Shown here: one piece after another, positions 11,939 through 54,079 of the stretch
Position numbering within the stretch: the first letter of the stretch is position 1
Layout: every line of letters begins with the position of its first letter
Assembly: GCA_002269645.1 (NCBI GenBank)
Contig: NIVC01000428.1
Coordinates: 186,001-250,000, forward strand
Length of the DNA stretch: 64,000 bases
Source of the DNA: Macrostomum lignano
Taxonomy: Eukaryota
Direction: 5' to 3'
Notes under the pieces: generated by a model
Told to the model about the DNA's origin: nothing
The model's input: only the letters and a program-made list of their open reading frames with translations
Database searches by the model: none
Position numbers and translations under genes: made by a program

Positions 11939-12070
11939 GTAATGAAATTGAAAATTTTAATAAACAGTTCAATAAATATACCTGTAACAAGTTGAATACA
12001 CAATATAAATTACGAGGCACCCTCATAATTTACCCATGGGGGCACCCTATGGGGGCACCCTATGGGGGCA

Positions 12071-13538
12071 CCCCCCATAGCTAGCTGGCAGTTGAGGCTC
12101 GGGTTCTGATCTTTGATGTACATAGCCTCTAAGATGTTCAAAGTGTGCTCATGGCGGCTGGCACCCCCATAGCTAGCTGGCAGTTGAGGCTCGGGTTCTG
12201 ATCTTTGATGTACATAGCCTCTAAGATGTTCAAAGTGTGCTCATGGCGGCTGGCACCCCCATAGCTAGCTGGCAGTTGAGGCTCGAGTTCTGATCTTTGA
12301 TGTACATAGCCTCTAAGATGTTCAAAGTGTGCTCATGGCGGCTGGCACCCCCATAGCTAGCTGGCAGTTGAGGCTCGGGTTCTGATCTTTGATGTACATA
12401 GCCTCTAAGATGTTCAAAGTGTGCTCATGGCGGCTGGCACCCCCATAGCTAGCTGGCAGTTGAGGCTCGGGTTCTGATCTTTGATGTACATAGCCTCTAA
12501 GATGTTCAAAGTGTGCTCATGGCGGCTGGCACCCCCATAGCTAGCTGGCAGTTGAGGCTCGAGTTCTGATCTTTGATGTACATAGCCTCTAAGATGTTCA
12601 AAGTGTGCTCATGGCGGCTGGCACCCCCATAGCTAGCTGGCAGTTGAGGCTCGGGTTCTGATCTTTGATGTACATAGCCTCTAAGATGTTCAAAGTGTGC
12701 TCATGGCGGCTGGCACCCCCATAGCTAGCTGGCAGTTGAGGCTCGGGTTCTGATCTTTGATGTACATAGCCTCTAAGATGTTCAAAGTGTGCTCATGGCG
12801 GCTGGCACCCCCATAGCTAGCTGGCAGTTGAGGCTCGGGTTCTGATCTTTGATGTACATAGCCTCTAAGATGTTCAAAGTGTGCTCATGGCGGCTGGCAC
12901 CCCCATAGCTAGCTGGCAGTTGAGGCTCGAGTTCTGATCTTTGATGTACATAGCCTCTAAGATGTTCAAAGTGTGCTCATGGCGGCTGGCACCCCCATAG
13001 CTAGCTGGCAGTTGAGGCTCGGGTTCTGATCTTTGATGTACATAGCCTCTAAGATGTTCAAAGTGTGCTCATGGCGGCTGGCACCCCCATAGCTAGCTGG
13101 CAGTTGAGGCTCGAGTTCTGATCTTTGATGTACATAGCCTCTAAGATGTTCAAAGTGTGCTCATGGCGGCTGGCACCCCCATAGCTAGCTGGCAGTTGAG
13201 GCTCGGGTTCTGATCTTTGATGTACATAGCCTCTAAGATGTTCAAAGTGTGCTCATGGCGGCTGGCACCCCCATAGCTAGCTGGCAGTTGAGGCTCGGGT
13301 TCTGATCTTTGATGTACATAGCCTCTAAGATGTTCAAAGTGTGCTCATGGCGGCTGGCACCCCCATAGCTAGCTGGCAGTTGAGGCTCGGGTTCTGATCT
13401 TTGATGTACATAGCCTCTAAGATGTTCAAAGTGTGCTCATGGCGGCTGGCACCCCCATAGCTAGCTGGCAGTTGAGGCTCGGGTTCTGATCTTTGATGTA
13501 CATAGCCTCTAAGATGTTCAAAGTGTGCTCATGGCGGC
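12071..13538. repeat. Tandem array, 16 x 92 bp, derived from the end of the GIY-YIG ORF
   Basis: Unit CCCCCATAGCTAGCTGGCAGTTGAGGCTCG(G/A)GTTCTGATC...GGCGGCTGGCA; period 92 (12077 to 13457 = 15 periods); A-variant in copies 3, 6, 10 and 12. Confidence 0.95.
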
Positions 13539-13712
13539 AGGAATCGATAATCTTAAATAAATCAATCGGTTTGCTGTTACAGCATGAGTTGCATGTGAGA
13601 AGGTGCTCCTGTACAGCAGATCTTTTGGTCCAGTGCTCCTTGACCCTGGTGTACAAGTGTCGCTTAGTTTTTCCGATATACGAAATGCTCTGGTCGCCAG
13701 AACAATTCCTCC
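13426..13712 (-). pseudogene. Penelope GIY-YIG endonuclease C-terminal fragment
   Basis: YIGxTxRHL..R..EH and LEAMYI...NPSLN motifs of Penelope/Poseidon endonucleases; RT domain absent. Confidence 0.85.
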
Positions 13713-14066: not shown

Positions 14067-17000
14067 ATGAACTCGGCGTTGAGCTACCTAACGCAGGTGA
14101 AGCGGCGCCTGGCCTCGGACAGTCCGGCTATCTATAACGGCTTTATCGATGCTCTGAGGGATTTCAAGGCTGGTAAAATTGATCCTCAGGTGAGGCGGGA
14201 ATTTGTGCTAAGCTGGTTTTTAGGGCTCTAACCGAAGCATTTAGATAGCCGCTACCCTTGATGAGAATTGCACTGTTCCTCAAAAACCTCCGATTACAAA
14301 ACGGCTTTCATTTTTCATATACTACCTTATCCATATTAACTGCCTTTATTCACCCTTTGGAATTTCCCCTATCCACCCTTTAGAAATCGCCCTATCTACC
14401 CCTTAGAATCGCCCCTATCCACCACTTAGAATCAATCACCCCTATCCACCATTTAGAATCACCCCTATCCACCACTTACAATCGCCCCTATCCACCACTT
14501 ACAATCGCCCCTATCCACCACTTACAATCCCCTTAGAATCCCCACCATTCCATACGTAGAATCGCGTCCTTCCATTTCCTAGAATAGCACTCACTAACTT
14601 CTGGCTTCCATGCGCAGGCCGCCCTGTCCCGAGTCCGCCAGCTGTTCCGCTCGTATCCGGACCTGGTTACCGGCTTTGTCGCCTTCCTGCCAGCCGGGAT
14701 GTCCGTCAGCAGCGCCCAGAATCCGCCCCCGCCCGCCGCCGCATCGCAGCAGTCGTATCCGAGACAGTCGCAAAAGAACCAACAACAGCAACAGCAGCAG
14801 CCACAGGAGGAGTTCAACCACGCAATCGCATACGTCAACAAAATCAAGTCGCGGTTCGCCGGTCGATCAGCCGTCTATAAACAATTCCTGGAAATTCTGC
14901 ATCGCTACCAGAAAGAGCAGCGGACTGGCCGGGTGCACTCCGAGGCTCAGGTAATGGCCGAGCTTGGCCGGCTGTTTGGCGGCCAGTCGGATCTACTGGA
15001 AGAGTTCTCCCTGTTTCTGCCGCATCGCCAGCAGCAGATGTCTCAGGCCGGTAAGTTTTTCTTTACTGAACTGGGACCATCATATGTGCACTACTGTAAG
15101 TAGCCTACATAAAGTATTGAATTAAATCAGAATGTTTTTTTAGCAATAGAATAGTGTCAATGACTCACCAAATTTATTTTTAATGACTCACTAGGGGTTT
15201 TAGCCTTGTGGTTAGAGCGTCGGACTCACAACTTGAAGGTCGGGGGTTCGATTCCCGATCTTACTAGAACAATGTGTCCTTGAGCAAGACAATTAACTCT
15301 GCACTGCTTGAGTTCACCCAGCTGTAAAATGGGTGCCAGCATTAGCTGGGGTAATTGAGGGTGTGTGTGGCGACCCCCTCCCCCCTAGTCCATCGACTGA
15401 ACAGCCGTACGCAGCCTTCAGATGCGCCGCGCAATAGCGGCGGCTGAGCTTTAATCATAGAACTAGACCTTTCAGTGTCAGCTGAGTCAGTGTGATATAG
15501 TTGTACCACCAACAATCGACAATTCCACTATGAATGGTAGACTGATGACAGTGGCCTTGGTATATACAAGTATATCGAAAATCGGGGTGCCACAAAACAG
15601 CCACGGAGAGCAAACCAGATCGCGTGTGCAAATCTATTTAATTCCTCAGACCCGGCCGCTGCAGTCAGCACCCAGCAGTCGCAGCCGCCACCTCAGCCTC
15701 TGCCGGCCCCGTCAATCCCGTCAACCATCCTGGCCCCGCTGCTTGCTCCCCGACCGACTGCTCTGAAGCGGCCTCGCCCGGCGTCGCCGTCTCAATCGTC
15801 TTCGTCCTTGTCGTCGCCATCTCTGTCGACAATGCCGAAGCGACGCATTTTTGCCGTATCAACCGATGTGGCAGCATCCAACAGTCCGCTAGTTGCTGTG
15901 CCATCTCGAATTCCGGCCCGGCCGCCTCTCTATCATCATCATCGACAAGTGCAGCGCCGGCGAAGGCCCCGACACCCGCCAGTTCGAGCTCCTTCGCCCA
16001 AAGCCGAGAGTCTACTAGCTGACGCTGCTAAATTTGACGCAGAGGCGGCGCGCTTTCTCGAGCGCCTTGAAGCCGCCATCGGAGAGCAGGAAGTGTACGC
16101 CAATTTCTTGCGCTGCCTCAACTTGTACGCCACTGGCCGGGTCGGTAGGCTTGATTTCCTAGAAAGAGCGGCCGCTTTCCTACGCCCGTTCCCGGATCTG
16201 CTCGCCTGGCTGCAGGCCGACCTGGCCGAGACTACCGACTCTGGTCGGCAGAAGCGCCGGCAGCAGCAGCAGCCGGAACAGACTCCAGAAATTGACTCGT
16301 TGAAGCTTCAAATCAGCGGCGGCTCCTACAGAGCGGCGCCGCGCAGCTTCGCTCAGCCGCGCTGCAGTGGCCGCGACCACCTGCCGGCGGCCTGTCGGGA
16401 GGCCCTCAATGACACCCTGGTGAGCTTTCCCAACTGGCTGTCCGAGGAAAGTCGTGGCGGCGGTCGGCGGAATCAACACGAGGAGGCCTGCTGTCGGGTT
16501 GAGGACGAGCGCTACGAGCTTGATATGGTGCTGGAGGTCAACCAGGCGGCCATCCGAGCGCTGGAGGCTGCCTACCGACGATTGCAGCGGCTGCCAGTTG
16601 ACGAGCTGGTGCGCCATCGTCTTGGCGAAGATCTGTGCGGCGGCTCCGCTGTGCTGCAGCGGCAGGCCATCTACCGGTGAGTCAGACTTCTCTTTAACCC
16701 CAGCTGGATCACCTTTGAGTTTAAGGCCGAAACGTTTGCAGTCTCTACCCTCTTCTCTTTGTTATCGTTTCGCCACCTTTTCTGCGATAAGTCCATTCTT
16801 CCTTGTAGGCTAGAATTCCAATGAAATCGTATTTAAATTAATTGCTTAAAAATGAATTTGGTAATGTATATTTTTCTGTGCATTCTGCGCACATTAACAG
16901 CCTGTGGTACTGTCAATATGTACTTTGTTCTCGTGTAATTAGCATTGAAATGGAGATTTATTCAAGCAAATTTAGTGCAACTGAGTAAGCAGCTACGATT

Positions 17001-20000
17001 GTTATAAGCATATAATGTAGGTGTCATTGGTAGCAAATTAGTTAATCAATATTGAAATTTTGCAGATAGGATAGTGCAATTATAAAGCGTAGAATCGCTA
17101 TAGGTATAAAATCACAGTCTAGAACTCATATATTGTTAGTATATATAACTATATTTCATCGATTGAGTTGGCCTTCTGTGAGTGTCTGTCATTTTTTCAT
17201 AAAAATTCCTGCTCATAGTTTCCAGAGATTGTGAAAGTGAATAATAATTGTTTACTCCTGCACAGCACTGACCTGCAGCGCTTTGCGTTTTTCCACCCGG
17301 GCCCGTAAGCAGTTCATAATTATCCTCGCCGCGTGGCGCTGCTTCTGTCTCTCCAGTGTGTTGCTAATTACTATGCGCTCCTCTTTGATCTTGCCGCCCG
17401 CTTTCGGCTTCAACGGCGCCAGCTGTTCCTCGTCGGCAGCCGTGCCCAGGAAGTTTCGCGTCAACGCGTCCAGCAGGTCTACGCAGAAGATCGTCTCGCC
17501 TTTGCAAATCGGCACGTTCAGGGTGGCCAACTTGATCCGGTTAGGCATGGGCAGCTGCAGCGGCGGCTCTAGCTCGTCGAGGAACTCGTATACTCGGCTC
17601 ACCGGGATGAAGCCCTTCGCCTTGGGATCATAGGACTCCCATTTCTCGTAGAACAAGTCGAAGTCCTCCTGCGTGAGACCCTGCTGCACATCCTCCGTTG
17701 CCTGACTAAAATTCTCCAGTATAACCGCTATGTACATATTGATGATGACTAGGAAGCTGATCACCAGGTAGGAAACCAGGAATAATACGGCCAGAGCGAA
17801 ACTGCCACAGTCGCTGTGCGGCTTTTTGTCTGGATCGCAGTGCGGCGGCTTCTCGTTGATTAAACCGTCCAAAATGCTGTCCCATCCAGCCGAGGTGCTC
17901 AGCTGGAACAGCACCACCATGCCGCTAGGGAAGGTCTCGAAGTTGAACATCTCGTCTATGCCGCTGCTGTGCCGCACGTGACTAAAAAACGATATGCCAA
18001 CTATGCTGTAGATGAACATGATCATGACTAGCAGCAGGCCGATGTTAAACAGGGCCGGTAGGGACACAAACAAGGAGAACAGCAGAGTGCGAATACCCCT
18101 GGCCGATTTCACCAGCCTCAGGACTCGGCCGACCCGAAACACTCGCACAACGCGTATTATAGTTGGCGGTATGCGCAACAGCTGTATGATGTCTTCCACT
18201 GCCCAGGTGAGAATGCTCAGCACTACTATGACGAAGTCAAACACATTCCATGGAAACTTGAAGTAATACCATCGCTGCGCCATCAGCTTCATCACGCACT
18301 CGAATGTGAATATCACTATGAAGACTCTGTTGATCTGCTCAACAGCAAAATTGAATGCCTCCGACTGGTCGTGATGTTCAATGCACATTACAATTGTGTT
18401 AAGCATTATGAATATCATAATTACAACGTCGAATTTTTGATTGCTGGTGATTTTAAAGAAAAACTGTGGGATTCTTAGCTTTGGTTTCGGTACAGGCTTC
18501 TGTGGAGCTGAGCTACTCATCTTCTTCATCGCTTTGTAGTACTTCTTTTGATCTTCTGTCAAGAATATTTCCATTGAACCGCCGGCTCGCTTCTTCTGCA
18601 TGTTGAAGTTATCAATAATAACGCCAATGAAGAGTTTCAGGGTGAAGAATGAACCAAATATGATGAACAGCACAAAGAACAGGTACATTGTGGTACTGGC
18701 GTCTCGTTGTGGCTGTATGCCGACACCTGAAATAAGCAATTAGTGCATTAAATAAAGTTTAACTATATTTAATAACTTACTAAAAATATTTTGTATCTGT
18801 GCTCAGTTACCTGTTATGTCAACCGCATCTGCAATGATTCCTAGCCAACCCTTGTATGTGGCTATTTGAAATAAAGCCAGATAGCCATTCAGAACATTGT
18901 CAAAATTGATTCGAGAATTCTGCCAAGACACGTTGCCAAATTTTCTTGCCATCTCCTCGCAAACGCTTTGGTTGGGGACAATTTCAGGTAGCAGACGTTC
19001 CTGCGTTTCATTGTCAACACACTTGTAAAACTGTCCTCCAAATAGCTGCACACCCATGATGCTGAATATTAACCAAAATACCAGGCACACTAGTAATACA
19101 TTGAAGATTGATGGTATTGCTTGGATAAGCGCGTTTACGACAACTTTCATTCCTTCCCATCTGCTTACAGCCCTAAGCGGCCTTAGAGCTCTCAATGTTC
19201 TCATGGCTTTGAAAGCGCCCATACTTTGTCCTGACGCTCCACCCAAGAAATTCAACACCAGGCTGCAGAGTGCTACATTTACTATTATAAAGTCCAGCCA
19301 GCACCACGCATCTTTGAAGTATTTCTTTAAGCCGAAGGCGACCCACTTTAGCACCATTTCCAGTGTAAAAATAACTGTAAAGCACTTGTCCATGTGCTCA
19401 AGAACCAGCTTCAACTTTGGTTTTTTGTGCAAATTGACATCCTCTACAGTTAGAGTAATGCTACTAAGTGCAATCATTAGAATGATGAACATCTCAAAAT
19501 ACTTGTGCTCAACTATTTTATAAACTTGGCATCGAAAAATCCACCAGGCTTTTCCGAATCTTGTCGTATCAAATAGCCGCATTACATTTGGACAATGCTT
19601 AGTCAGCTTCTTTGGCAAGCAGTCCTCTGGAGCATCCCAGTAAACAATGTCTACTTCGTTGATTTCTGGCTCTTCAAATGCAGGTGGAAATTGATCCTCC
19701 AATGCAAGGCTAAATTGGCATTTTGGGTAGATTTTGTTGTGCGCCTCACCACAAGCATCCCGATTGGCATGGAGTTCGTTAATGTCTTTAAACACCATAT
19801 TACTGGCCGCTATACTGACATTCTCCATTAAAAATGCCCCGTGTCGCTTCAGCGCAAATCGGCCGTCTGGGCTTATCCTTGGTCCCCTTTTATCTGCATT
19901 CTCTGCATCAGGTTCGTCAACGTCTTGACTGTCGCTTTCAAACAGATCTTCATCATTTAGTTCCTGACTGCACAGACTATCTCTGATTTTGTAAATAATA

Positions 20001-23000
20001 TACCAAAAAAATCGAATAATCTGCAGCCGCAGCCATACTAAAAACCTCTTGATTCGATCAATAGCCTCTTGAAGCTTATTAACCTCTTCCTCCACTTCAC
20101 GCCGTTGCAGACTCTCAGCCCCGAAGCTGCTCAATAGCAAGGCTAAGAACAAACTGAGTACAACCAAACTGGCCAATATGTTTGTTAGCAAGAAGAAAGG
20201 CATACAGATGAATCCGTTTACGTTCATACAGTTCCACATGCTGTCAATCCATTCTCCGCACAGAACACGGAATACTATCATAAAGCTGTGCGTAAAGTCT
20301 TTGAAGTTCCATCTCGGGTAGTCACCTTTGTAGTGCGGATACAGTGTCGTATTCTTATACGTCGAGTAGTTCTCACCAAACAGTTGCATACCAACGACAG
20401 CGAATATAAATATTATTATACCCAGGACAAAAACTAGATTTCCCAATGCTCCCATTGTTCTTGCAATGATGGCGAACAGCAAATTCATTGTTTGCCAAGA
20501 CTTGGCTAGCTTGAACACGCGAAGAAGTCGGAAAGCACGTAAAATTGACAATCCCTGGATGTTCTGGAGTGGCAGCTCTGCCAGGCTTAAAACTACAATG
20601 CAAAAATCGAATATATTCCATCCGTCTTTGAAGTAGACTCGTGGCTTCATTGCTATTAGCTTGCAAATAGCCTCAACTGCAAACGTAGCTGTAAAGAAGA
20701 GATTCGCATTGCTCAGGAATTCGCTAAATTTCTTGCTGTTCGTCGGCATATCAAGGGCCATGAAGCCTGTATTAACCAAGATGCACAACGTGATGTACAG
20801 TTCTGTAAATGGGTCTAGAATTATAAAGGCAACATATTTTTCGAACACCTTCCAACCGTCGCAGCAATCCCAACTGTCGCAACACTTATCCAGAAAGCGG
20901 CGCTTGAAGCATTCTGTTTTTTTCTCTTTCCTCTTCCCTTCTATGTCAATGCTGTCTTGATTTTTTGCAGTTTCTGAGGACTCATTCACCAAGGTTTTTA
21001 GCAGGATGACTTCTTGCATATCAACTATTTGTCCCTCTAGTTTCGCTGTCCTGTTGGCAAGTGTGACCCTGTCTCATATTTATTAGTTGAGTATGGTCGA
21101 CTGTCGCAGATTTTGTGGTATTCTTCGTTTGACACTAGGTCCATTGTTGGCCTTTCCTGACCATCTTTAGTGCAAAGCAATATATTTTTCAAATTCTTTC
21201 TCTTCAAATCAGACATCCAAACATTTGTGTGGATTTTGAAGTCATGATCCAATGTCGAGAACTGTGCGTATTTTTTTATTCCTTCATTGATCAGTTTCTG
21301 CTCTTTGACATGTTCCGATGCAGGCGTCTGAGCAGACGATTCATCTGCATATGGGAATCGTATTGCTTCCAATATATTAAGTTTGGTGCATTCCGCTGGT
21401 TTCAAATGAAACCTGTCTTTGTGCTTAATGCACGGCGAACTGGGCAAACTGAGACTTTTGAACCATTGTTTATTAACTCTTTGAGCGTATTTTTTCGCTA
21501 TTATTCTTTCTCGTACATGTCCACCTTCAATCTTGTCAGATTGCATGCTTAGCTCCTCTGCGCTTTGCTTGAATCTATCTAGCGATATTCCGGCTACCTT
21601 ATAGATATCTCGCAAGCTCAGGCAGCTCATTTCATCTGAATAGTAGCTTTCAGAGAAAGGCCCGTCCTTGTTGAACTCTTGCTCCTGTTTTTCTTCGTCT
21701 TGCTTCCGAGCAGCCTCTTCCTCTTCGTCCAATTTGTCCTGTCTTCTTACTTCATCGTAGGCCATCGCAACTATAGCTAATATGACATTCATTAGAAAGA
21801 AGGAACCCAACATAATGACAAAAGCAAAGTAGAAGACGTGCGGTTTTCCATTGGTTCGAATTACAAGCTGGTAGAGGCTTTCCCAGTAGTCTTGCGTCAT
21901 GAGACGAAATGCGCATAGCATCGACCAGCCGAAGTTGTCAAAGTTTGTATAACCAAAGTCAGGGTTGGCTTCGTCGGTACGAAAACATTCGTAGCCTTCT
22001 GGACACTGTTGCCCGACCTGGTCTGATAATGAGCACACCCGAACTGTTGGGTTTTTGTACCAGTTGCTGTAATTGTTTCCATGTAGCCTCCGCAATTTCT
22101 GCTCTAATATTTTTTGCTCTGTACTGCTAAGCTCCGTGTAATTTGTTAGTTGTTCCATGTCAAGGTATTCTGTCAGATTAAACTTTGCTACACACTTCTG
22201 CAATAGTGTGCCTTTGTACACTTGCAAGCCTACCAATGCGAATATACTTAGCACAAAAATTGTCAAGATGCCTACGTCTCTCAGACGTTTCACGGCTTCC
22301 ATCAAAGCACCAACAATAGTTTTCAGACCAGGCACGGTTGTTACGGTTTTTAGAGCTCGCAAAACTCGAAGTGAGCGTAGCGCACTGAGATTTCCCAACG
22401 CCTGACTGAAAAACATTATGTAAGCTAGGCCGATGACTATAAAGTCAAGCCAATTCCACGCATCGCGCAGGTACGTGAAATTCGATAGGATCAAACCTCT
22501 GGATATTGCCTTGATTATAGCCTCGGTTGTGTAGATTGCCGTGAATGTGTATTCCACTGTTTCTGAACTGCTGTTCATTGCCATGAAAACGCAATTACAA
22601 ATAATTGCTAGCAGCACCAGCATGGAGAAAGCCGGGTGTGTTAAAATTTTTATCGCACATCGTCTTATTGGATTGAACGGCGACAGAAGCATGAGTGCTT
22701 TGGTTGCTGAAAACCTGAATATTGTCTTGTCACGCGCAATGACAACGCAGGTGAGCTTGTCAGCGTAGAACTCGTCAATATCTTCCAAGATGACGCCGCT
22801 CAGCTTCTTGACGGGAAACCGTTCGCTTAAATTTGGCGGCAGCTTCATGCCAGCCGCAAGCTTCGGATTCGGCCGCCTTTCATCTGTCGCTGTAGATGCC
22901 ACATTAGTCGGACTATCCCGTCTTGCAGACGCCGTCTTGTCCAAATTCTTACCTTTCAATTTAGTCGCGCGTTGCCTACCAACAAGCGGTGCTGCCAACT

Positions 23001-26000
23001 TAGTATTCACCTGCGCCGCTCCAAATCTTGACGCGTGTGCACTTAAAGCCTGGCCCAGAAATGTTCCATCTTTCCGTCTCCGAAGGATGCGCTCCACAGA
23101 CTCCTGTGTGAATAGACGAAATGGCGAGAAGCGCTCATACTCCATCACCGATAGTGTATTCAGCGTTCAGTATTCTCCGTCGATTAAACTATTTCTGACT
23201 TTTAACAGCGAAGAAAGACTTCAGACTCGATGATCTTTCCTGTCATTGGCTGAGCTGCCCTACTGGTCTAAAATGAGTCCAGTCACCAATCTTTTATTAT
23301 AGCTGCTGTTAGATAGCCCACGCGACAAGACTACTATTCCAATCCGTAGCTATTATGGATATTTTCGCAATACCATCTGTCCGCTTATAAATCTTTGGCC
23401 GCTTTGAACAACCGAGATTGTTTATCCTAGCGATTATGAGGCCTGCAGTGCAGTTGGAGCCCTGCCGCCATTCAGCAGTACAATGCACCCTGAGTGCCAA
23501 CCCCAGTGCTGCGCATCATTTGACTAAGGAAAGGCGGGCGCATTCTTAATCAGTATCGGCTTTTACTCGCCTGCTTTGGCGAGGCTCCCCCCTCCGCTTT
23601 ATCCCCGGGCGAGCCATGCTCGCCGCGTTGCTGCTGTCTGCCGCATTCAATTTATTCTGCGGAGCTCCTTGCGTCCCCGGCTCTTCTGACGCGCTGCATA
23701 GAACAAACAGCTGCATCATGCTGAGAGATGGAGATGGTAGCAGAAGGCGACTGGGGGGGGGGGGATAAGTCGCAATTTAATGACAGCCCCTGGGCCCGAG
23801 TAACCAACTGAGGCATATTGATCGCCCTGGATTTTCCTGCCCGCCCAACGAATTTCCCATTCAATAGCCAAGACAGTTTAGCTTTTCGCCAAGTCCTCCC
23901 GCAGTCTCTTTTGGCTCTCTTTTCACTTCTGCTTAGCTGGGTAACGCAGTCCCCGCTTATCCATTTTCCTCCTTCTAATCCTAGTTATCAAATGCTGTAC
24001 TTTGCGAATTTGCATCTTGCAGTAGATAGCAAAACGCATCTATTTATCATTCATTTTCTGAAATAATTATATTACAAGGCTTGCATTTGACGACCAAAAC
24101 TCCGCAGTTAATTTAGCCGTCTCGTTTGATAAAACCGGAACATTAGGAAAATAGGCAATTTTGTTTCGTAGAATAATGTCCTTTTTTAATTTAAAAAAAT
24201 GAAAAACACTTACTTATTCCTTTATTCTCATTCTTAATCTCTTAGTAAGTCATTGTGGTTCTCATATCTGAGTAGCTCGGCGGTAGACGCATCTGACTCT
24301 CGCGCCACAACTCCTGGTTCGATTCCGTGCACAGCCACCTGACTGTTACCTGGTCAGCGAATCCTGTTTGCCAGACAGGATAAAAAACAAGATAACAAAC
24401 AGGATAACACAATGTTTCCCTGCAGGATTCGCATGAATTACCCGACTGTTACCTGGTCAGCGAATCCTATTTGAATCTTGTTTGAAACAAGGAAACGTAA
24501 GATTTCGTCACGCAAACAGGATTCATACAAAATAACATTTTGCATAACCGGAATAGGGCATGTTATCTTGTTTGAGCGAAAGTTATCTTGTGATGTTATC
24601 TGGTTTATTTACCAGAGGGTACATTCAGTTGGGATTTGTGCGCCAAAGTTTGACCAGGGGGTTGTCGTACTATCACACCCATGGGGGCCAGCGTGTACAC
24701 GACTGACGCAGTACAGTACTGGCGCGTTTGTACGTGCTCAAGAGCTCAAGAGAAGAGAATCAGCAGAATTGCCTCATCGCTCTTTTTGGGACCTGTATCA
24801 ACAGTAAGGTAAATTTTCTTTTACCCAACAAATGCGCGCAGAGTCTACGGCGACAAGGCGCACGTGGTCATCCAGTGCCTGCAGGAGAATCCGGCCGTGG
24901 CCGTGCCGCTGATCCTTCGCCGACTGAAGGCCAAGGCTGACGAGTGGAAAGAAGCCCAGAAAGCCTTCAACAGAGTTTGGCGCGAACAAATCGATAGAAA
25001 CTACGCCAAGAGTCTGGACCATCAGGTGAGTATTACGGTAACAAGCCCACGCTCTAGCTTTTATAGCCAATGCAAATTACTACTGTAATTACTACTGACA
25101 TTCAACCGAACAGGGCCAGGCGTTCAAGCAGTTGGACCTGCGCCAGATGCGCACCCGAGCCCTTGTGAACGACATCTCCACTAGGCCGGATCAGACTGTC
25201 CGGCTGGCCGTGTCCTCGGACAGCGCGGCTGCTCGCAATGACGCTGTAGACCTGCTGGCGCTGCAGGCGAAGCGACTGGCCGGCGTCGGGCAGGAGGAGC
25301 GCGCGGCCGTGAGGCGGCTGCTGCGCTGTTGGCTTCGCGACGTCACCGGAGACGACCGCGTGGCCAGCGACAGCGCCGTTGGCGAGTCCGATGCCGACGA
25401 AAGCCGCATTGACAGCTTGCTGGCGTTGGAGGACGCGGAGCCGCTGATACCAACTGATAGGCGACCGTTGCTAGGCAACAGCGCAGTTTACTCCTTTCTG
25501 CGCCTGTTCCACATGCTGGCTGAGCGGCTCGGCGAGGTCAAGCTGGCAGCAGCTGAGGCGGCAGCCGAGTTGGCGCCCACAGCGACCAGCACGGCGGCCC
25601 GCTCCGCCAAGACCTACGCCGCATTTCTACAGCTGGCCACGAGCCTGATCAACACCAGCCTGGACCCCGCCAGTTTCGAGGAGCGTGTCCGACACCTGCT
25701 CGGCAGTAGGTGCTATCGGATTTTCACGCTTGACAGGCTGCTGTCGCTGGCCGTCCGCCAGCTGCACAGTCTGGTCACCGAGGAAGCCTCCCGGAGGCTG
25801 CTGCGTCAGTTCTACGCGACCAGGCCTTCGGTGGCGGCGGCCATAAAAGGCGAGACGGCCGGAGCGGCGGTCGATTGCCCGCCTGACGGAAATCGGTGAG
25901 CCCTCAAAATTTTAGACGCCTAATACGAAATCATCTATGAAAATTAGTCAACGGTTCTTTTTGGAAAAGTCGGTTTCTGAAATAACTAGATTTTGTACAT

Positions 26001-28149: not shown

Positions 28150-31100
28150 TCAGCGACAGTCTGCCGGCTCCGGCAGCACCACGTGGAACTGGGCCTCGTC
28201 GTCTAGCAGGCGACGCGAGTCCAAGTCCAACATATCGTCGACTTCCACCTTGATGCCGCGGCTGGCCAGCTCGGCCTTCCGCTGCATCAGCGCTGACTCC
28301 AGCTGGCGCATCTTGGCGGCCACGTCAATCCGGCAGACCGGGTGCGGCTCCTCGCAGCCGCTGCAGTCGGCAGGACTCTCCATCGCCGAGTCGCTGTCCA
28401 CCGAGGGCGAAGGTTTCGCCTTCTCGACTTCCAGCTCGGTGTCGTCCAAGTCGAGTTCCACTTCGCCGGCTGTTGGAGGCAGCGACGAAGGCAGCGGCGA
28501 GGCGAGTGACGACAGCGATGGCGTTGACGACGGCTGCGGCGTCTGGGGCGGCGGCAGCGCGGGTGGAAGCAGACAGAGCTGCTGCTGATGATGCAGCGAG
28601 CCCTTGTTGCGGACGTGCCGGGGCAGGTAGATGTTCTTGCAGTGAATGAGCTGGTGCGCCCGCAACCGGCTGGTGCTGATGAAGGACCTGCCGCACGAGG
28701 CGCACTGGAAGGGCCGCTCGCCGCTGTGCACCCGCTCGTGCACCTGCCAATTCGAAATTCGTGTTGGATTCGTAAAGCCTACTCTAGATTGAGGAGGCGG
28801 CCCAGCCTGAGGATCTGGGAGGGTGGCTGGCGGTCCAGCCTGAGGATCTGGGAGGGTGGCTGGCGGCCCAGCCTGAGGATCTGGGAGGGTAGAAGCCCAG
28901 CCTGAGGATCTGGGAGGGTAGAAGCCACTACTAAGGACGCATTTATCCGGGCGTTTTGGAGGCGGGGTGGGTGTCAACCCTCCTCGCCTCTCATTGGCTG
29001 GCGCCCCGATCACTAGGTGATCGATACGCGTATCGATATCGGCGCTCGGCGCGCGCACGCCGCAGGCGCGTGGCGCCAAGCGCCGCAGGCGCACCCTCCC
29101 GATATGTGCACCCTCCCGAGCCGCAGGCGACCCTTCAGAGCAGCAGGCGCCCATCCCGCAGGGGTACCCTCCCGATATGTATGCGCACCCTTCCGATATG
29201 TATGTCGCAGGCCCCCATGCTGCAGGCGCCCCATGCCGCAAGCACCCCGAGTGTACACTCTACCGAGCCGCAGGCACCCCGAGTGTACACTCTACCGAGC
29301 CGCAGGCACCCGAGTGTACACTCTCGCGATATGTACACTCTACCACTCTCCCGATATGTAAGATATCTAGTCAGCGATATTAGGCTAGTGAAAACTACTT
29401 ATAGTAGATGAAATTGCGTATATTTACATAAAAAGTAGATAAAACATATTGGTAGGTGTGAATAATGACGCATAATACATATTGGAGCATATGAGCAGCA
29501 AAAACACACAATGTAGGTGCATGGGCAGAAATAGACAAAGCAGGTACTGTAGGCGCTACATAGGTGGAAATACACACAGTATAATGCAGGTGCATACATA
29601 CACACAATGTAGGTGCAAATTGAGTATAATACAGGAAAATTACATAGCATATAATGTAGGCGCATTTTAAACGATACATTTTGCATATTAACCCGCAGGC
29701 ACAAAGTATATATCGGTCATAGGATAAAATACACACACTGGAAGTTAAGTATAATACAACATATGTATGCAAAATTAAGCATATAATGTAGGTGCAAAGT
29801 AAAATATCCAGCCCAGGATATTCGAGACACGCCCCCAGAGTCAGGGCCGGGGGATCCCAATGTACAGTGCGGGCGGAGTAACATAGAGAAATTCCAATTC
29901 CTCCCCAGGGCCGGGGGATCCTAGCGGAGTACAGTTCAGGTAGGAGCGTTCCTAGTCTGCAACCCATAGCTTCCAAATAGGGTACGAGGGGCCAATGTTT
30001 CGAGAGGGGATCCTCAGTACAGTGCGGTCAGAGAGGAGTAACATAGAGAAATTCCTCCCCAAGCCCCAAATAAGGTTTTTTCAAGGGGATCCCAAGTACA
30101 GTGAGGGCAGAGAGAAATTCCAATTCCTCCCCAAATGGGGGTTATCAAGGACCCCTCACATTGCACAGGGCGGGCAGAATAACAGACCGCATACAAATAG
30201 GGGTTTTAGCGGATCCCAAGTACAGTGCGCTCCCTGGTGTCAAATGATGAAGGAATCCCGCCCCCCAATGCACAGTGCGCTCCGGGGTGTTAAATGAGGA
30301 AGGATCCCGCTCAATGTACAGTGGAGGTGCCAAATGAGTAAGGACCCCTAAGTACAGTGCGGGCGTAAAACCATTTTCATCCCCACGAGTCAAGGGATCC
30401 CAAGTGGGCACATAGGGGAATCCCAGGCGTAAAAAAGATAGATCCTTATCTTTCACTCACTCCCGAAAGCCATACGGGCGGCTAGCGGCCCCATACACCC
30501 TCTTAGTCATCACGCGCTGGAAAGTCTTGTCCATCTCGAGGGTCCTTATTGTACAACTGGCCTTATCGCGCCTGAACTGGGCCTGGGGCAGGCGTACAGT
30601 CCCGCCGTGACGCAGAATTTCCTGCAGCTCGTCCTCGCGCTCGGAAATCTCGGGCGTGACTCTGATGCCCTTGCACTTGAGCACCGAGTACAGCGACCCG
30701 TCGGGCTTCTCCACCACGTACCGGTAGAGCTTGGGGCCTCCCGTGGTGAACTGTACCATGCGGCAGCCAGCAGGTACCTCGTCAGTCCACTGCCCCAAAC
30801 TCGAACCGCCCGGAGGCTCGTACTCGCCCGGGAGCAGCGGTATACGACCCTGGGAGGAGGAGAAGGATAAAAAGTGTTAAGGGGAGAAAGAGAGACAGAG
30901 ACAGTGAAAAAATTACTTACGAATCAGTATCGGCGTAAATGACGCGGGTTCCTAGACCCTCCAGAGCCTCGTAGAGTCGCAGCCGGGCGTGGGAGGTGGT
31001 GAAAACGCCAATAGGTACATTAGCGTACTTGAAAGCCCGCTCGCCAGCACCGCCAAATCGGGGCTTGTACTCGAGCATCATGAAGCTCTCCCCAATTGGC

Positions 31101-34100
31101 TCGCACGACTTGACCTTGATCGAGGGGTCGGTCAGGCGCTGCAGCCACGCCTCGTAGCTGTCCACAATCTCTGTGGAGGTCAGGTCGTCGCGCTGGCAGA
31201 ATTTGCCCCAGAGCCTGCAGGGGAAAAATAAATTTTTGTATATCTGGCTACTGTAAGTAGAAAAACACGGTCCCCACTGCAAGTAGAAAAAACTTACGAG
31301 TTTAGAAAAATCTTGGCAACAAAGCGCAAGCCAGGATTCTCCTCCACCTTTTCCAGCCGGACGCCTTCGCGTTCGAAAAAGCTGGCCATGTAGGCAGCCT
31401 TGGCGTCCTCAGCCATCCCCGGCGAACCGCTAGACTCTGCTTTGAGCTTCAAAAAAGTGTTTACATAATCTGCAAACAGGCCCGTGCGAGTCTCGGTCCA
31501 ATAGGCCAGGGCATGAACTGACTGCAGCTTGTAACCCAACTGCAGGGCTTTGTGGAGCTCTGGGGTCGACCACGTGCCGCGGAGCATTCTCTCAGCGTCA
31601 GTGTGTGTACACTCGCTGCTGCACTGGGTCTCCATGCAGACGCGGCAGAGGCCGAAAACCAACTTCTTGTTAATCTTGGCGGGCAGTAGCGGGATGTGGA
31701 GATTGGTTGGCGGCAGAATCGACACCTCGGCGATGCCAAAATACCGGGCCAGCTGCAGCTCATCCAGTAGATGAGGCTCGGGGTGGTGTACCGGGTGCCC
31801 GACCGGGTACTTGTCAAACTTGTTGACAGTCGGGTAGAGCGACACCTAGGGGATAAGGATAAGATAAACTCAAACGCATGTCAACTGTGTGTGTACAAGT
31901 GTACAAACTTACCACATCCCGATAGCGCAGCTCTACAGTCTCGGTGGCCTCGGCGTGCGGGACAAAAGCCTCGGTACGGCCGCCAAACAGGGCATCCTCC
32001 AGGCGAATAGGCTGCTGGACTGGCGCTCCCTCGTCCTGATAGTCGTGCTCCCACAGAACACGCACATTGTATGCAGTGGAGAGCAGCCGGGTGAAGCGCT
32101 CAGTCTCCTCATAAATTGCTCGCATTGGCTGGTTCTTGAGCGGGTGCAGCACGTCGCCGTTGGGGAAGCACTTGGGACAGCCATGGTAGAAACAGCCATG
32201 AAACTGCAGCACTGTCCTGGTCTCTGGGTCGAAGCCGTCGACCTTACGGCCCATGGCGAAAGCCTCGCCGCCAGAATCGGCTGTCCGCAACCGGCCGCCA
32301 AACTCGGTTGCATTTAAATGTGCCAGCCAGCACCGCGCCTTGTGCGACTGTACATCGGACCGGCGGGAAATCACCCCAAGAGTGTTGGGCTCCATAAACT
32401 TGGTGGTGAATACCGACATGGCCAAGCCCGCAATGGTGTTGGATTGAACAAATGCGTCCAGTCCGCAAATGTCCTTAATCAGGCGGGCATATTTCAGGCA
32501 GCCTTCCCGCAAAATTAACGTGTCCTGCAGGCAATAGTCCAGGTACGCCTTATTGAAATTAAACACCTGTCCCTCCTGCTTGGCCAGCCAGTCGGCGATG
32601 GAGTCATGCTGCTTATTCTTCTTCCCGCCGTACATATCAATTGAGCAGTAGGGACCGACGTACCCCCAATTTTGAGGCTGATTGAAGACGTGCGGGAAAT
32701 CTCCTTTGGTCAGTTGGGTGCCCAAACCAAGCGCCTTTGGGAATTGCGCCAGACCAATAGGGATGAAATTGAGGCTGTCCTTGAAGGTGATCTTGTCGCA
32801 CTTCATATACATTAGGCGGCTGTTCTGGAAGATCACTTGCGGCTTCTTCTTGGCCAGTCCGTTGAGTAGGGCGCCGAGCAGGAGGAATGCGTCATACGCA
32901 GAGCCATTGTGCGCAATAGCAATTGCCCCCTGCTTGAACACACTAGTCAGCCAGCAGTAAAAGGCATCGATAGAGTGCGGCCCGACAGATACAAACTCTC
33001 GCATCCCACAGGCACAGTCATTGTGCGAGACACAGCTCGTGAAATCGAGTGCCAAATCGCGTCCCGCAATGCAATTGGCTGAGCTGTGTAGTCCCCCGCA
33101 CGCGCTGCAGCGGGGCCTGGGGAAGAGTTTGGGACACGCCTCGCAGGAGGTGGCAGCCGTAACCAAGTGTACCCGGTGCTGCTTGCCAGAGTCCACGTAC
33201 GTCTCGAAATCATAGTAAACATACGGGGCGCTAGACTCTTTGGCTTTGGGCGGGGTGACAAAGCACTCGTGGGTGGCAGTTTCGTCGTACTGCTTGCAGA
33301 CTGGGCACTTGGCATAACCACACTGATGCTCAGGGGGCTGGCCTACTTTTAGTTCTTCTAGATAGCCACACGTGCCGCAAACGTGGACCGAATCACAGCG
33401 CGATCTGCCGGATTGATGCCTACTTTTGTGTTAGGTACCTGCTTTTTATTAAATACACTGCACCAAAAGCAACTTTAATCGGTACATACTGTGTTTTTGT
33501 AGAGGTGCCGGTATGCTTTTTAATACATATGTCTTTAGTGTAATTTGGTGTGCTTCTTCAACTTGGCTCGCGAATCTTGCACTATGGCTCTCTAGTGGAA
33601 AGTACTCTTACTTGTGCTGGTTGCGGGTGATTGTAAGGCTTTCTGCTTGACTTCTTTAGTTTACTTGATGGTTAAATGAGGAGTGGGAGCTGACGCGCCT
33701 ACCTCGGGGGAGGAATGCAGCTCCGCGGTCTGATGCAGCGCTTTCTGTTACCCCTCTCCGTCCGCACTGTACATTGAGCGGGATCCCCTCAAGTGTTAAA
33801 ACTCCCATTTGGAGGCTCTGGGGAGAGTTGCAGTGGAGTTCAACAAATTTCTGATAAGATCTCTTGCGGGGGCATGACACTCGTCTCGAAATAAAAAAAA
33901 CCTGAACAAGTGCTGGATGCCCTTACTAGTTGGCTGGTTGTTACCTCTACAATTGTGTACTATTTCTGTCAATATTTTCCCCTGCATTATGTCAATATGT
34001 GCTACAGGGTGTCATAATATGATACTTTTACGCACTAATATGTACACTCGTATCATAATTTTCCTGCATTGTGTCTGCTTCTACATCTACGATGTGTGTA

Positions 34101-37100
34101 TTTTAACCTATCCCCCGATATATAATATGTGCCCGCGATGTGTGGTAATATGCCGAAATGTACATGTACAAAATCAATAGTGTGTATATACGTCTGCATC
34201 GTTTTTGTCTATGTTTTAATAATACACACCTGCATTATACTGGCTTTCCATATGAGTGGCAACTCCTTTGTAACCTACAATTCGTTGGCTCAGTGTTAGT
34301 GGTATTTTGTAATTAAATTACTACGTCTAAATGTTGTATTATTATTGAATTCAATTATTATTGAATTTCACTCCTCATGTGCTAGAGAGGTCTAATTGTA
34401 ATATAATCTTGCTATTAATCTACCATCTCTACTGTAAGTAGACTGTGACTTGGTGTCTGGGCTCGAGTTGTGTACTCTTTGTATGAATGCATTCTTGGTG
34501 TGTAACTCCTGACCATCCCTTCCCTCTGGGAGCACTGCAGATAGACTAGTATGGCTTGGTATTCAGGGCTGGTGTGTGCACGTAATACTCTGTAATATTT
34601 ACCGGACTCGGGTGGGGAAGCTCGTTGTACGGCTCTCTCCGTGGGGTGTGATTCACCGCCTCTCTGTCCCGCGCCTCCTGCCAGGGGAGCTCTCTCCGCG
34701 GGGGTGACTTACACACTGCCTCTGTCCCGCGCCGCGTGCTGTGACATGCCGGGTAGCGTCCTCTATCTCCTACTGCCTCCACGCACTCTCTGTCCCCCTC
34801 CTGCTACAGGGGGCTGGTTGCTCGCTGTACAGGGCAGCGTCAGCATCTGGGTTTCCTTCCTGCACCGTCTACCCCACCACTATACTGACTAACCGCATGC
34901 ACACGACATTGGTGGGAGGGGTGGAGTTCCCCACTGACGGGTGTACACCTACTCGACGCTGAAGGTACACTTGCTGAACGCCCACCCTGTCAGATGTACA
35001 CTTGCTGAACACCCATCCTGTCAGATGTACACTCGCTGGACGCCCACCCTGCCGGGTGTACACCCCGCCGTCCCTTCCCTCCAGGAGCACTGCAAGTAGA
35101 CTAGTATGGCTTGGTATTCGGAGTTGGCGTGTGTACGTAATATACTCTTTGTAATATTTACTTGACCTGGGTTTGTAAGTTCTAATAACATATAAATGAC
35201 TACTGCTGACTAGTTGACGCATCTGGATGGTGTGATAAAAACTAGTAACGTACCGTGATTTCGAGAGAAATCCTAGCACAATACTGTTCTGTCCGGCATG
35301 TGGAAAAGTATTTGCCCCGCCTTCGCTTACTCATACTGCACACAGACAAAGCTTATCTCTATTAGCAATCTGTTCGTGGTGGTTTAGAAGGATACTGTCT
35401 TCCTGTATATAGCTCTCTATCCCTTCATCACTCGTAATAACTTCATAAATGCTCGCTTGACCAATGGCTGGTACTGAACTAATAATTCATACGATACATA
35501 ATGGTTAATACTTTCTAACTCCGTACAGCTCACAAGTTTCTACTCTCTACCTTATCAGTAACATTAAAATAAAAAGGTAAAATTTGCTGGTTTTGTGCCT
35601 TGTTTGCTTACTTTTCTATTAAAATACTTGCGGTTTATAATTGAAAATGTCTGCTTTTTATTCAATTTTATGTGGTTTGAAGGTTTATTTTTGCTAAAAT
35701 GCCTGGTTTCTTATAAAAATTTCTACTCTCGACAATGATTGTGTCAGCTATTTCATTAAAATAACCTACTTTTTGAATAAAACGTTGTATTTAAGCCCCT
35801 AGTTTTTTCAAAACATAATTGAAACAGCTTACATAGAGCATGCAGACCCCGAAACCCCTCTAGTGTGCCCTGATTTCAGCGGTCTGACGGTTAAGATCTG
35901 TATTTTTACACTATATTTTCCTTCATACAGCAATACAGGAGGGTATGGAAGAGTGAGTCTGGCGGGAGAGGGGGCTTGTGGGGTGATGAGGATGCGTACA
36001 CACAGTTTAGCCTGTTTTAGCCTACCTTTTGGGCTAATATACTTACTATTATTACTACCATTATACCTACTATGTACATACTATTATACTACCCGCTATT
36101 AAATATGCTGCACTAAAACCAACTTTTGAAAATACATAGCGTGTTTTGGTCTATTCTCCCTCACGTCTCTGTCCCTACACGTGCTCTGCCCGCTTTGGTC
36201 TCTGTTTGTGTACCTCTCTGTAACGTCTCTGTACGCTCAGACTGGTTTCTCCGTCCCCGCACGCGCCTCTACTAAAGTTTGCTGTTACCTACCCCTACAC
36301 ACTGCTCTCTGTCTCCCTCCGCGCACACCTCACTGCCCTTGCATGTAATTTGCATGCCTTGCATGCCCTGTCCTGCCCTCGCGTGGGTCCCTGCCTATAC
36401 ATAGCTACCGGACCCTACCTCTCTCTGTGCCTTGCTCGCAACTCTGTCCCAGGCTCCCCTTCATACTTCTCTGTCCCAGGCCCCCTTCATACTTCTCTGT
36501 CCCGGGCTGTAACTGGCTGACACGCGCCTCTCTGTTCCCCAGCCTGCGTGGCTGCCTACCCTGCACACTGCTCTCTGTCCCCCTCCGCGCCTCTCTATCA
36601 TCCTATTCCTGCAGCTGACCGTGCCGTTCAGCTCTGTCCACGCACGGCTCCACCCCTGCCCGTGTCTCACTGTACACTGCTCCCTGCTGCATGGCTCCCT
36701 TACCCTGCGCGTTTGCTTCCTATCTCCCTCCTGCTCCATATGTTTCTGTTCCCTCACACTACGCACACGTGGCTGGCTCTCTGTCCAAACACATCTCTGC
36801 TCCTCCACTCTATCCTCGCGTGGCCCCTTGACGGTTCGCATGCCCCTGCATACCCTGCCTGCCTCTCTGTCCCCTGCAACTGGGGAGGGAGCTCTCTATC
36901 CTCTGTATGGCTTTCTCTGTGGGGTGTGTGTGACTCACACTACCTCTCTGTCCTAGCATGCGCCTCTCTATCCGGCTCCTGCAGCAGGCTGTGTTATTCA
37001 CATCTCTTTCCACCCACCCTCTGCCCGTACACGCTCAGTGTACAGGGCTGCGTCAGCATCGGGGTTAAAACTTCTCGCTCCCTATGCTTCAACAGTATAA

Positions 37101-38450
37101 CAACCTAGTGGCTGGTTCTCTGTCCGCCCCACCCCTCTCTGCCCGTACACTCTCACTGTACAGGGCTGCGTCAGCGTTAGGGTTGAAACTTCTCGCTCCC
37201 TATACCCCACAACCGTGTAGTGTCCTAGTATGGGCGCGACCTGGGTTCGATTTCGCTAGTTGAGATGTAGGTGAGAGAGGGGAAGAGGCCCGTATCGATG
37301 ACTACATATCGGTGTACACACATATCGGGAGAGTGTACACTCGGGGTGCCTGCGGCATGGGCGCCTGCTGCATGGGCGCCTGCGGCTCGGGAGGGTGCGC
37401 TTGGGATCTGATTGATTTGGGATCTGATTGATTTGGGATCTGATTGATTTATTGGGATCTAATATCGGTAGGTGCGCCTGCGGCTGGGGAGGGTCGCGGG
37501 TTCGAGTCGCCGATATCGATACGGGTATCGATCACCTAGTGATCGGGGCGCCAGCCAATGAGAGGCGAGGAGGGTTGACACCCACCTCACCTCCAAAATC
37601 GCGCCATTCGGAATCCCTTAGTAGTGAAGCCCAGTCTGAGGATCTGGGAGGATGGCTGGCAGCCAAGCCCGAGGATCTGGGAGGGTAGAGGCCCCGTCTG
37701 AGGATCTGGCAGGGGCTGGCGGACCAGCCTGAGGATCTGGGAGGGTGGCTGGCGGCCCAGCCTGAGGATCTGGGAGGGTAGCTGGCGGTTCAGCCTGAGG
37801 ATCTGGGAGGGTAGAGGCCCCATCTGAGGATCTGGGAGGGTAGAGGCCCCGTCTGAGGATCTGGGAGGGTGGCGGCCCAGCCTGGGGATCTGGGAGGGTG
37901 GCGGCCCAGCCTGAGGATCTGGGAGGGTGGCGGCCCAGCCTGGGGATCTGGGAGGGTGGCGGCCCAGCCTGGGGATCTGGGAGGGTGGCGGCCCAGCCTG
38001 GGGATCTGGGAGGGTGGCGGCCCAGCCTGGATATGGGAGGGTGGCGGCCCAGCCTGGGGATCTGGGTGACTCAAGTCAAGTCCGGCAGGGCAGCTACTAG
38101 CTTACCTGCAAGTCGTATTTCCTGCCGTAGGACTTTCCACACACTCCGCACTCGTGCCTAACCAGCTCGCCGGTGTGTATTTTCATGTGAGCGCGCATGT
38201 TGTCCTTGCGGCTGAAGGTTTTGTAGCACTGGTTGCAGCTCCAGGGCCGGTCGCCGCTGTGTATCTTGGCGTGCCTCTCGTATTCGTATTTGAATTTGAA
38301 CACCTTCCGGCAGAAGCCGCAGGGGTATAAAACAGCGCCTGCGTCGGCTGCCTCGCTGCGAAGTCGCTCAGCTCGGCGGGAGATCTCCGACATTGGGTCC
38401 GGGTCCAGCACCACCGTCCTGGGGGCTGCCGGTGCCAGTGCCTCGCTCAT
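28150..38450 (-). CDS. C2H2 zinc-finger protein (4 fingers), two coding exons separated by a 9.4-kb intron
   Basis: Exon 38106-38450 (CGFC..HAKIH, CNQC..HMKIH, CGVCGKSYGRKYDLQ) splices GT-AG to exon 28150-28743 (VHERVHSGERPFQCASC..HQLIH), completing finger 3 across the intron. An acceptor at 38469-38470 suggests a further upstream exon. Confidence 0.88.
28790..28926. repeat. Minisatellite (GGCCCAGCCTGAGGATCTGGGAGGGT-like, 26-30 bp), left part
   Basis: Same unit and orientation as 37626-38065; it is the target array split by the pPolB element. Confidence 0.85.
28927..37625 (-). mobile_element. Polinton/Maverick-derived inverted-repeat element carrying only a recognisable pPolB gene
   Basis: Ends ACTACTAAGG / CCTTAGTAGT flanked by GAAGCC on both sides (28921-28926, 37626-37631; 6-bp TSD). 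Near-identical inverted block about 28958-29045 versus about 37507-37595, plus subterminal repeats. Internal protein-primed PolB. Confidence 0.85.
30457..33430 (-). pseudogene. Protein-primed DNA polymerase B (Polinton-type) with 3 spliceosomal introns and one frameshift
   Basis: N-terminal Cys/His region, ExoI YDFET, ExoII HNGSAYD, ExoIII YCLQD, VSR-like insert (VDG...QFHGCFYHGC), FGGRTE, motif A DV|VSLYP, motif B KIFLNS|LWGKF, motif C YADTDS|V, and C-terminal KR..SRPYGF. Introns at 31846-31912, 31215-31297 and 30850-30920. One-base frameshift near 30835. Confidence 0.92.
37626..38065. repeat. Minisatellite (GGCCCAGCCTG(A/G)GGATCTGGGAGGGT-like), right part
   Basis: About 16 degenerate copies filling the rest of the zinc-finger intron. 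Confidence 0.88.
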
Positions 38451-48393: not shown

Positions 48394-49035
48394 GGGGTCG
48401 CCATCATAAACTCGAAAAATCACATCGTCGAAAACAAGGCTCCATCACAAGCTCGAAAAATCACATCGTCGATAACTGATTTAGCAGCCATCATCACAAG
48501 CTCGAAAAGTCACAAGCTCGAAAAATCACATCGTCGAAAAGCATCCACCATCACAAGCTCGAAAAGTCACAAGCTCGAAAAGTCACAAGCTCGAAAAGTC
48601 ACAAGCTCGAAAAGTCACAAGCTCGAAAAGTCACAAGCTCGAAAAGTCACAAGCTCGAAAAGTCACAAGCTCGAAAAGTCACAAGCTCGAAAAATCACAT
48701 CGTCGAAAACTGATTTAGCAACCATCATCACAAGCTCGAAAAGTCACAAGCTCGAAAAAATCACATCGTCGAAAACTGATTCAGCAACCATCATCACAAG
48801 CTCGAAAAATCACATCGTCGAAAACTGATTAAGCAACCATCATCACAAGCTCGAAAAGGCACAAGCTCTAATCCTAACCCTAACCCCAAGGCACTAACCC
48901 TACCCCGACCCTAACCTAACCCTAAACCCTAACCCTAAAGGCACAAGTTCTAACCCCGACCCTATTCGAGCTTGTGATGGTGGTTGCTGGGTCTGTTTTC
49001 GGCGATGTGATTTTTCGAGCTTCTGATGGGCCCCC
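48394..49035. mobile_element. Foldback/MITE-like element with internal tandem repeats and a telomere-like CCCTAA tract
   Basis: Inverted ends GGGG..CCATCA..CTCGAAAAATCACATCG.CGAAAAC; internal AAAGTCACAAGCTCG-type tandem (about 48500-48690); degenerate (CCCTAA)n at about 48870-48960. Confidence 0.65.
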
Positions 49036-54073: not shown

Positions 54074-54079
54074 TAGGCT

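Follow-up and report, generated by a model that had tools for sequence, protein, structure and literature searches.

The closest described systems to the locus analysed here are Polintons whose polymerase, pPolB, is of the VSR type (group 2) (10.1101/2023.08.22.554363, PMC8097293). PMC8097293 describes the core genes of Polintons as intronless, in agreement with an earlier sequence-based note on this DNA (the original prediction) according to which Polinton open reading frames (ORFs) are intron-poor. In the same source, intact vertebrate Mavericks are without introns. By contrast, the pPolB studied here has six spliced introns, three of which lie at the catalytic motifs A, B and C. It belongs to a short Polinton derivative (mini-Polinton) inserted in a 64,000-nucleotide stretch of the Macrostomum lignano genome (contig NIVC01000428.1, positions 186,001 to 250,000, forward strand), called the window throughout. 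We propose that introns were repeatedly gained at these motifs, and that this gain was likely driven by homing-type nucleases reading the invariant motif codons, a proposal to which we assign a probability of about 0.42.

The three motif introns, which the original prediction had called as GT-AG introns of the lengths given in Table 1, are genuine. Each begins with a GTAAGT donor and ends in a pyrimidine-rich YAG acceptor. A DNA search of the worm's own genome, in which 40 of 98 candidates were scored (all 90-100% identical), showed that GT..AG is retained at the three positions in 30 of the 30 copies fetched, with lengths that differ among copies (65-89 nt for intron A, 68-83 nt for B and 68-75 nt for C). 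Moreover, one contig from each of runs X3 and X12, which come from two studies, skips all three introns, contigs of run X13 hold the joints for introns A and B, and contigs of run X2 read straight through all three; the nature of these runs and of X17 (probable RNA for X3 and X12, DNA for X2 and X17) is a guess, none being on record as RNA. Spliced junctions and constant positions across copies, both named in the original prediction as checks, were found. The exon carrying the exonuclease and VSR-like parts is continuous, as had been claimed. The window copy has a one-base frameshift at most about 20 nt past the third acceptor, a point through which 28 of 30 copies read. The pN/pS ratio (non-synonymous to synonymous polymorphism) of pPolB is 0.096 in 20 copies, and 7 of 19 copies show no frameshift or stop relative to the reference over exons 3-7; hence the spliced polymerase is under purifying selection.

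Three sites at the polymerase active site are also a property of the inteins of family B polymerases (PMC549080, PMC4071816). The present introns differ from these in being removed by the spliceosome at the RNA level, in being non-coding and devoid of intein or nuclease sequence, and in their junctions. Inserts of 65-89 nt that mostly shift the frame and are skipped in RNA-type contigs are not inteins. Introns A and B lie 3 nt upstream and 2 nt downstream, respectively, of the presumed pol-a and pol-b intein sites; a literature search for the exact positions of these two sites came up empty. The distance between intron C and the pol-c site, YGD/TDS, is 8 nt (slash, junction; PMC549080). The statement in the original prediction that the three motifs are classic intein sites is borne out for pol-c and is presumptive for pol-a and pol-b. 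A second point of comparison is provided by mirusviruses, nuclear DNA viruses whose conserved genes hold short GT-AG spliceosomal introns with homing nucleases (shintrons), in a system where VSR-like and HNH nucleases occur (PMC12768974). Here, however, no nuclease is encoded by the introns, the target is a polymerase rather than virion genes, and the element is integrated. Introns A, B and C are ordinary U2-type spliceosomal introns, neither inteins nor shintrons. The classical MAG/G proto-splice context was looked for by sequence inspection and is absent at all three sites.

The original prediction counted three of three introns at catalytic motifs. This count has to be corrected to three of six, since the 5' part of the gene is missing from the window copy and the pPolB of full-length copies has six introns. 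When contigs were laid on a full copy, further pPolB introns of 737, 70 and 209 nt were found, together with a 75-nt spliced intron beyond the stop codon of a neighbouring ORF for a PC4-like protein. The joint of the 737-nt intron was seen in one run only, and that of the 209-nt intron also in X17, although this intron is present in every genomic copy. All six pPolB introns occur in 19-20 of 20 copies. A sister family (62-71% protein identity, 50-62% in the N-terminal part) shares with this one the three motif introns and no fewer than two introns of the N-terminal part, and three database proteins of other samples have ends exactly at these pPolB exon borders; the proteins closest to pPolB in the databases are labelled Macrostomum lignano. 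The count of three in six thus represents one ancestral set. The sister family, with its 867-aa frames, could pass for intronless; it is not, since its motif-A intron, 81 or 87 nt long in 7 of 7 copies, preserves the reading frame. Additional introns suggested by aligner output beside the exonuclease I insert were discarded, as the signals were weak and the RNA contigs continuous. The six introns are mutually unlike, no pair being closer than shuffled sequences (p >= 0.10 in 15 pairs), which rules out a common mobile origin.

Are the motif positions more than a coincidence? Conservation was profiled over 41 outgroup pPolBs that lack introns. With windows of size 2 or 4, introns A, B and C rank among the 1-5% most conserved; with size 6 the figure rises to as much as 9%. 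The probability that at least three of six introns are so conserved is 3e-4, 2e-3 or 1.3e-2 according to window size (Fisher's p 0.01-0.02). The three introns coincide with conservation peaks 3, 4 and 5, the motifs that B-family polymerases share; the exonuclease, VSR-like, GGRT and KGxFPH peaks, conserved to the same degree, have no intron in this gene. All these within-gene tests are post hoc, and the motif bias seen in this gene alone is suggestive. It might be argued that six random gains took place in one lineage, that three happened to hit motifs, and that breaks in motifs are the easiest to notice. Such an account draws on the post hoc choice of this case from a genome-wide scan and on the fact that all copies here are one evolutionary sample; the low probabilities just given speak against it. 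So does the recurrence in other lineages described below, where the same motif-B serine codon is broken in a lineage that is not sister to this family and one D-T-G junction is common to seven proteins that are 19-41% identical. We therefore consider chance with ascertainment improbable.

Recurrence outside this family is stronger evidence than the bias within the gene. In a coral-labelled cluster, for which counts come from 15 of 348 members listed, two NCBI eukaryotic gene models read through motif B, and all six ORF-called members that reach motif B stop at LNR or LNS followed by a stop codon. Two downstream ORFs begin matching at the motif-B serine and are preceded by an F/C/L-rich leader, of the type expected from a pyrimidine tract. 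The same LNS end closes all of the listed members with motif B (24 of 24) from three related clusters, and 14 of 14 printed members with motif B from two control clusters read through. Scans of viral contigs gave no relatives. By hand derivation, the read-through tail of protein P0176 appears compatible with a 68-nt phase-2 intron. In a quick, unrooted LG+G4 tree the coral-labelled group is nested within intronless relatives, and its union with the flatworm group as one clade is rejected (approximately unbiased test, p 2.4e-7). A wider protein survey covered 140 further representatives (150 listed from 683 hits; 3 dropped). Of 58 truncated C-terminal ends, 8 lie at motif C, seven of them with the D-T-G change that a phase-1 GT donor would produce. 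Of 20 unrelated N-terminal leaders, 6 lie at motif B (7 of 21 with P0225, added by eye). The junctions number four at motif B and two at motif C. The 11 proteins with these signatures are mutually 19-44% identical, and 9 of them are nearer to a read-through relative than to a fellow case. Judged from these protein ends, different junctions a few nucleotides apart would fit separate events near a fixed target. Taken together, we regard a non-random recurrence of introns at pPolB motifs as quite probable. The suspicion in the original prediction that placement is non-random is upheld by the top-ranking windows and by this recurrence, and the comparison of position with conservation that it called for gave low probabilities for three of six; the part that did not stand is the bias over the whole set of introns, discussed below.

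These data also bear on the possibility that motif introns are old, an early nuclear Polinton having had them and most lineages having lost them. The identical motif-B position in two distant lineages is what such an origin would leave, and the count of changes on an unrooted tree cannot separate gain from loss. Nevertheless, many exact losses would be required, as 35 intronless rows surround both groups, and the four motif-B and two motif-C junctions would be left unexplained. An ancient origin is very unlikely in our opinion.

How could introns be attracted to catalytic motifs? Homing elements favour conserved sites, and spliceosomal introns do not (PMC2814812). Inserts with homing nucleases occur in pPolBs (10.1101/2024.03.18.585575), and collaborative homing has been described in phages, where a free-standing nuclease cuts the intron-less allele and a group I intron protects from it (PMC11296320). 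The logic we propose is alike, except that the introns are spliceosomal rather than self-splicing and that the pair formed by nuclease and target is putative. According to this scenario, separate Polinton lineages likely acquired introns at catalytic motifs repeatedly, the invariant motif codons likely being cut by homing-type nucleases belonging to rival elements. An intron would interrupt the recognised DNA and thereby shield it, the protein being left intact. The proposal includes both the case in which repair of the break creates the intron and that in which selection merely keeps one. Pressure from a nuclease accounts both for the restriction of hits to the motifs that B-family polymerases share and for the scatter of junctions over a few bases. 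An intronless Polinton of the same genome has an Endonuclease VII-like domain inserted in its polymerase. Loci L103 (6426-9998), L239-L246 and L254-L255 comprise intronless Polintons with such a polymerase domain together with the polymerase-poor AGTAG-ended copies described below. More tentatively, we put forward a broader idea: pPolB motifs would be true hotspots of spliceosomal intron gain through homing-type nucleases in rival pPolBs, with gains that sometimes coincide to the nucleotide between unrelated animal hosts; the introns would be a eukaryotic stand-in for the inteins of family B polymerases; and a helper-dependent mini-Polinton with three shielded motifs would be the extreme case. 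If true, repeated gain at catalytic motifs would contrast with the reported site indifference of spliceosomal introns (PMC2814812), and same-codon gain in separate lineages would offer a direct test system for intron origin and recurrence.

Several observations weigh against repeated, nuclease-driven gain. Within the gene, the remaining three introns occupy windows that rank in the bottom 5-13% for conservation. A mean-conservation test of all six introns is not significant (p 0.18-0.42), a result that also favours chance. None of the introns contains an ORF, and they are short and unrelated to each other; the remnants of homing elements evoked in the original prediction were not found. A VSR-like signature is present in 34 of 42 aligned pPolBs and, as it occurs with or without introns, does not discriminate; the VSR-like insert has no PDB or NCBIfam match. 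The nuclease, its target and cleavage itself are putative. In related metagenome loci with DNA (40-46% identity) introns were seen in 0 of 80 at A or B and in 0 of 73 at C, with an aligner that recovered the known introns as a control. Outside this genome, introns are deduced from protein ends alone, and the tree mentioned above, obtained in a quick search without a root, has one long branch. Alignment ends also heap elsewhere in the survey (nine of the 58 between +25 and +29 past motif C), so that binomial p-values against a uniform null are too small. Moreover, introns inside the exon between motifs B and C are invisible to this survey because that exon served as the query. Heaped ends and a query-bounded search inflate the counts, again in favour of chance.

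The main rival of nuclease-driven gain is a filter on survival. Introns would arrive at random; those in variable regions would be lost by imprecise deletion, and those in catalytic motifs, which need an exact deletion, would accumulate in a compact, DNA-replicating element. Recurrence at varied junctions is then explained without a nuclease, the retention of inteins and group I introns has been argued along the same lines (PMC2814812), and the introns resemble plain host introns. However, the three introns of the variable N-terminal region are kept in 20 of 20 copies, at least two of them being shared with the sister family in spite of its divergence in that region, and the other equally conserved motifs of this gene lack introns. 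Nuclease-driven gain and this filter stay the two strong explanations, the filter being the less probable.

Introns give general protection from silencing. Motif introns might thus serve regulation, unspliced RNA yielding a dead polymerase, or might hide conserved sequence from small RNAs, and probable RNA runs show transcripts of the family and their splicing. Yet the mature mRNA restores the motifs, and the motif-A intron of the sister family is in frame. Dependence of expression on splicing is already ensured by the upstream introns, so a regulatory role, as suggested in the original prediction, needs no motif positions. We hold this explanation to be highly unlikely. Finally, introns could have been transferred from host B-family polymerase genes by gene conversion, as the motifs are the only sequence shared between those genes. 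In the host, however, no intron breaks motifs A, B or C of the Pol delta-like and Pol alpha-like genes, or motifs A and C of the zeta-like gene (whose motif B was not seen), which largely rules out transfer from present-day host polymerases; we give this origin next to no credence.

The element that hosts this gene is itself unusual: it is a young Polinton derivative of the polymerase-only type, present in many copies and expressed, whose ends are reversed and which has a palindromic satellite. It resembles Polintons in its PF03175 pPolB with a VSR-like insert, in its long terminal inverted repeats, 6-bp target-site duplication and PC4-like gene, and the nearest outgroups of its pPolB are Polinton-type pPolBs. 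From its Cys/His motifs, we take the N-terminal region of pPolB to be OTU-like. Full copies measure about 9 kb (8.8-9.1 kb or slightly more; overall range 8.7-10.4 kb), as compared with 13-25 kb in Polintons, and have terminal inverted repeats of 1.2-1.4 kb and ACTAC..GTAGT ends instead of AG...CT; no integrase, capsid or ATPase match was obtained in 20 family-A and 9 sister-family loci. A 6-bp duplication was found in 11 of the 11 copies with both ends recognised (21 examined), and CACTA/Chapaev-type ends with a 4-bp duplication were ruled out by this length and by the ACTACT ends. Besides pPolB, full copies code for a PC4-like protein, a relative of which lies next to the integrase in full Polintons of the same genome. 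No integrase was matched in 31 loci by two integrase markers from the same genome, which found their positive control; no capsid or packaging ATPase marker matched inside the 31 loci, where protease had no separate search, and the ORF lists of four copies agree with this. A Pfam A32 search of the genome gave nothing even though an A32-like ORF exists, so that blanks of this search are weak. Eight full Polintons of this genome could be checked at their ends; all have AGTAG..CTACT, the reverse complement of those of the mini-Polinton, and none of them is a helper with matching ends. The element behaves like a helper-dependent Polinton derivative and departs from full Polintons in integrase, capsid, size and ends. 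It likely replicates by its own pPolB and likely takes integrase in trans. Introns in pPolB motifs were not found in the titles and abstract openings of the Polinton literature, a scope that leaves aside most subscription papers and Repbase reports. With introns recurring at these motifs, Polinton screens based on ORFs would miss whole active lineages.

Mini-Polinton families with ACTAC..GTAGT ends comprise loci L031-L050 and L081-L100. Downstream of the PC4-like gene some copies have one more ORF, of 336 codons and without a known family (L033 7961-8968); the 75-nt intron beyond the PC4-like stop codon lies at L040 7875-7949. One copy sits in a capsid-like gene of another Polinton (L042 155-633, 9454-9612). 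Several 8-12 kb copies with AGTAG ends keep integrase and capsid-like genes and little or no polymerase.

Table 1. Coordinates in the window of the inserted element, its parts and the exons and introns of its pPolB gene (slash, intron position).
Feature	Position	Strand	Remarks
Whole inserted element, ends 5'-ACTACT...AGTAGT-3', 6-bp duplication GAAGCC	28927..37625	.	recombinant: pPolB mini-Polinton (left) and palindromic satellite arm (right)
Terminal inverted repeat arm, pPolB mini-Polinton family	28927..30249	.	1.2-1.4 kb in full copies
Final pPolB exon	30457..30849	-	one-base frameshift near start in window copy
Intron C	30850..30920	-	71 nt, phase 2, Ser codon right after second Asp of motif C (YADTDS/VVY)
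pPolB exon, motif B to motif C (LWGKF...YADTD)	30921..31214	-	
Intron B	31215..31297	-	83 nt, phase 2, within Ser codon of motif B (KIFLNS/LWGKF)
pPolB exon, motif A to motif B (VSLYP...KIFLN)	31298..31845	-	
Intron A	31846..31912	-	67 nt, phase 0, inside motif A (YRDV/VSLYP)
pPolB exon: Cys-rich region, exonuclease motifs, VSR-like insert, first half of motif A	31913..33411	-	PF03175; truncated upstream here
Arm of 8.8-kb palindromic element, ACTACT ends, no Polinton marker gene	33412..37625	.	stands in place of pPolB 5' exons and PC4-like gene

The window copy lost the 5' part of pPolB at about position 33412, and from there on it matches at 99.9% one arm of an 8.8-kb palindromic element with like ends. 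This palindromic element is likely a satellite of the mini-Polinton, the window copy recombining both. An example elsewhere in the genome (L251, G000:C2128) measures 8.8 kb, with 4.2-kb arms, a 6-bp duplication, ACTACT ends and no Polinton marker gene, and the element is abundant, many inverted pairs being 95-100% identical. The insertion in the window lies within a 29-33 bp minisatellite (28150-28750 and 38106-38400, minus strand), in what appears to be an intron of a C2H2 zinc-finger gene. Elsewhere in the window, a voltage-gated sodium-channel-like gene with three long frames (17252-23166, minus strand) is found between pieces of a Sin3-like gene (15541-16680 and 25099-25899, plus strand) and is possibly nested in it. 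Many minisatellite arrays lie within 48400-62600 and 11980-13660, with 13-23 bp units and a 92-bp unit inside a 160-bp inverted repeat pair.

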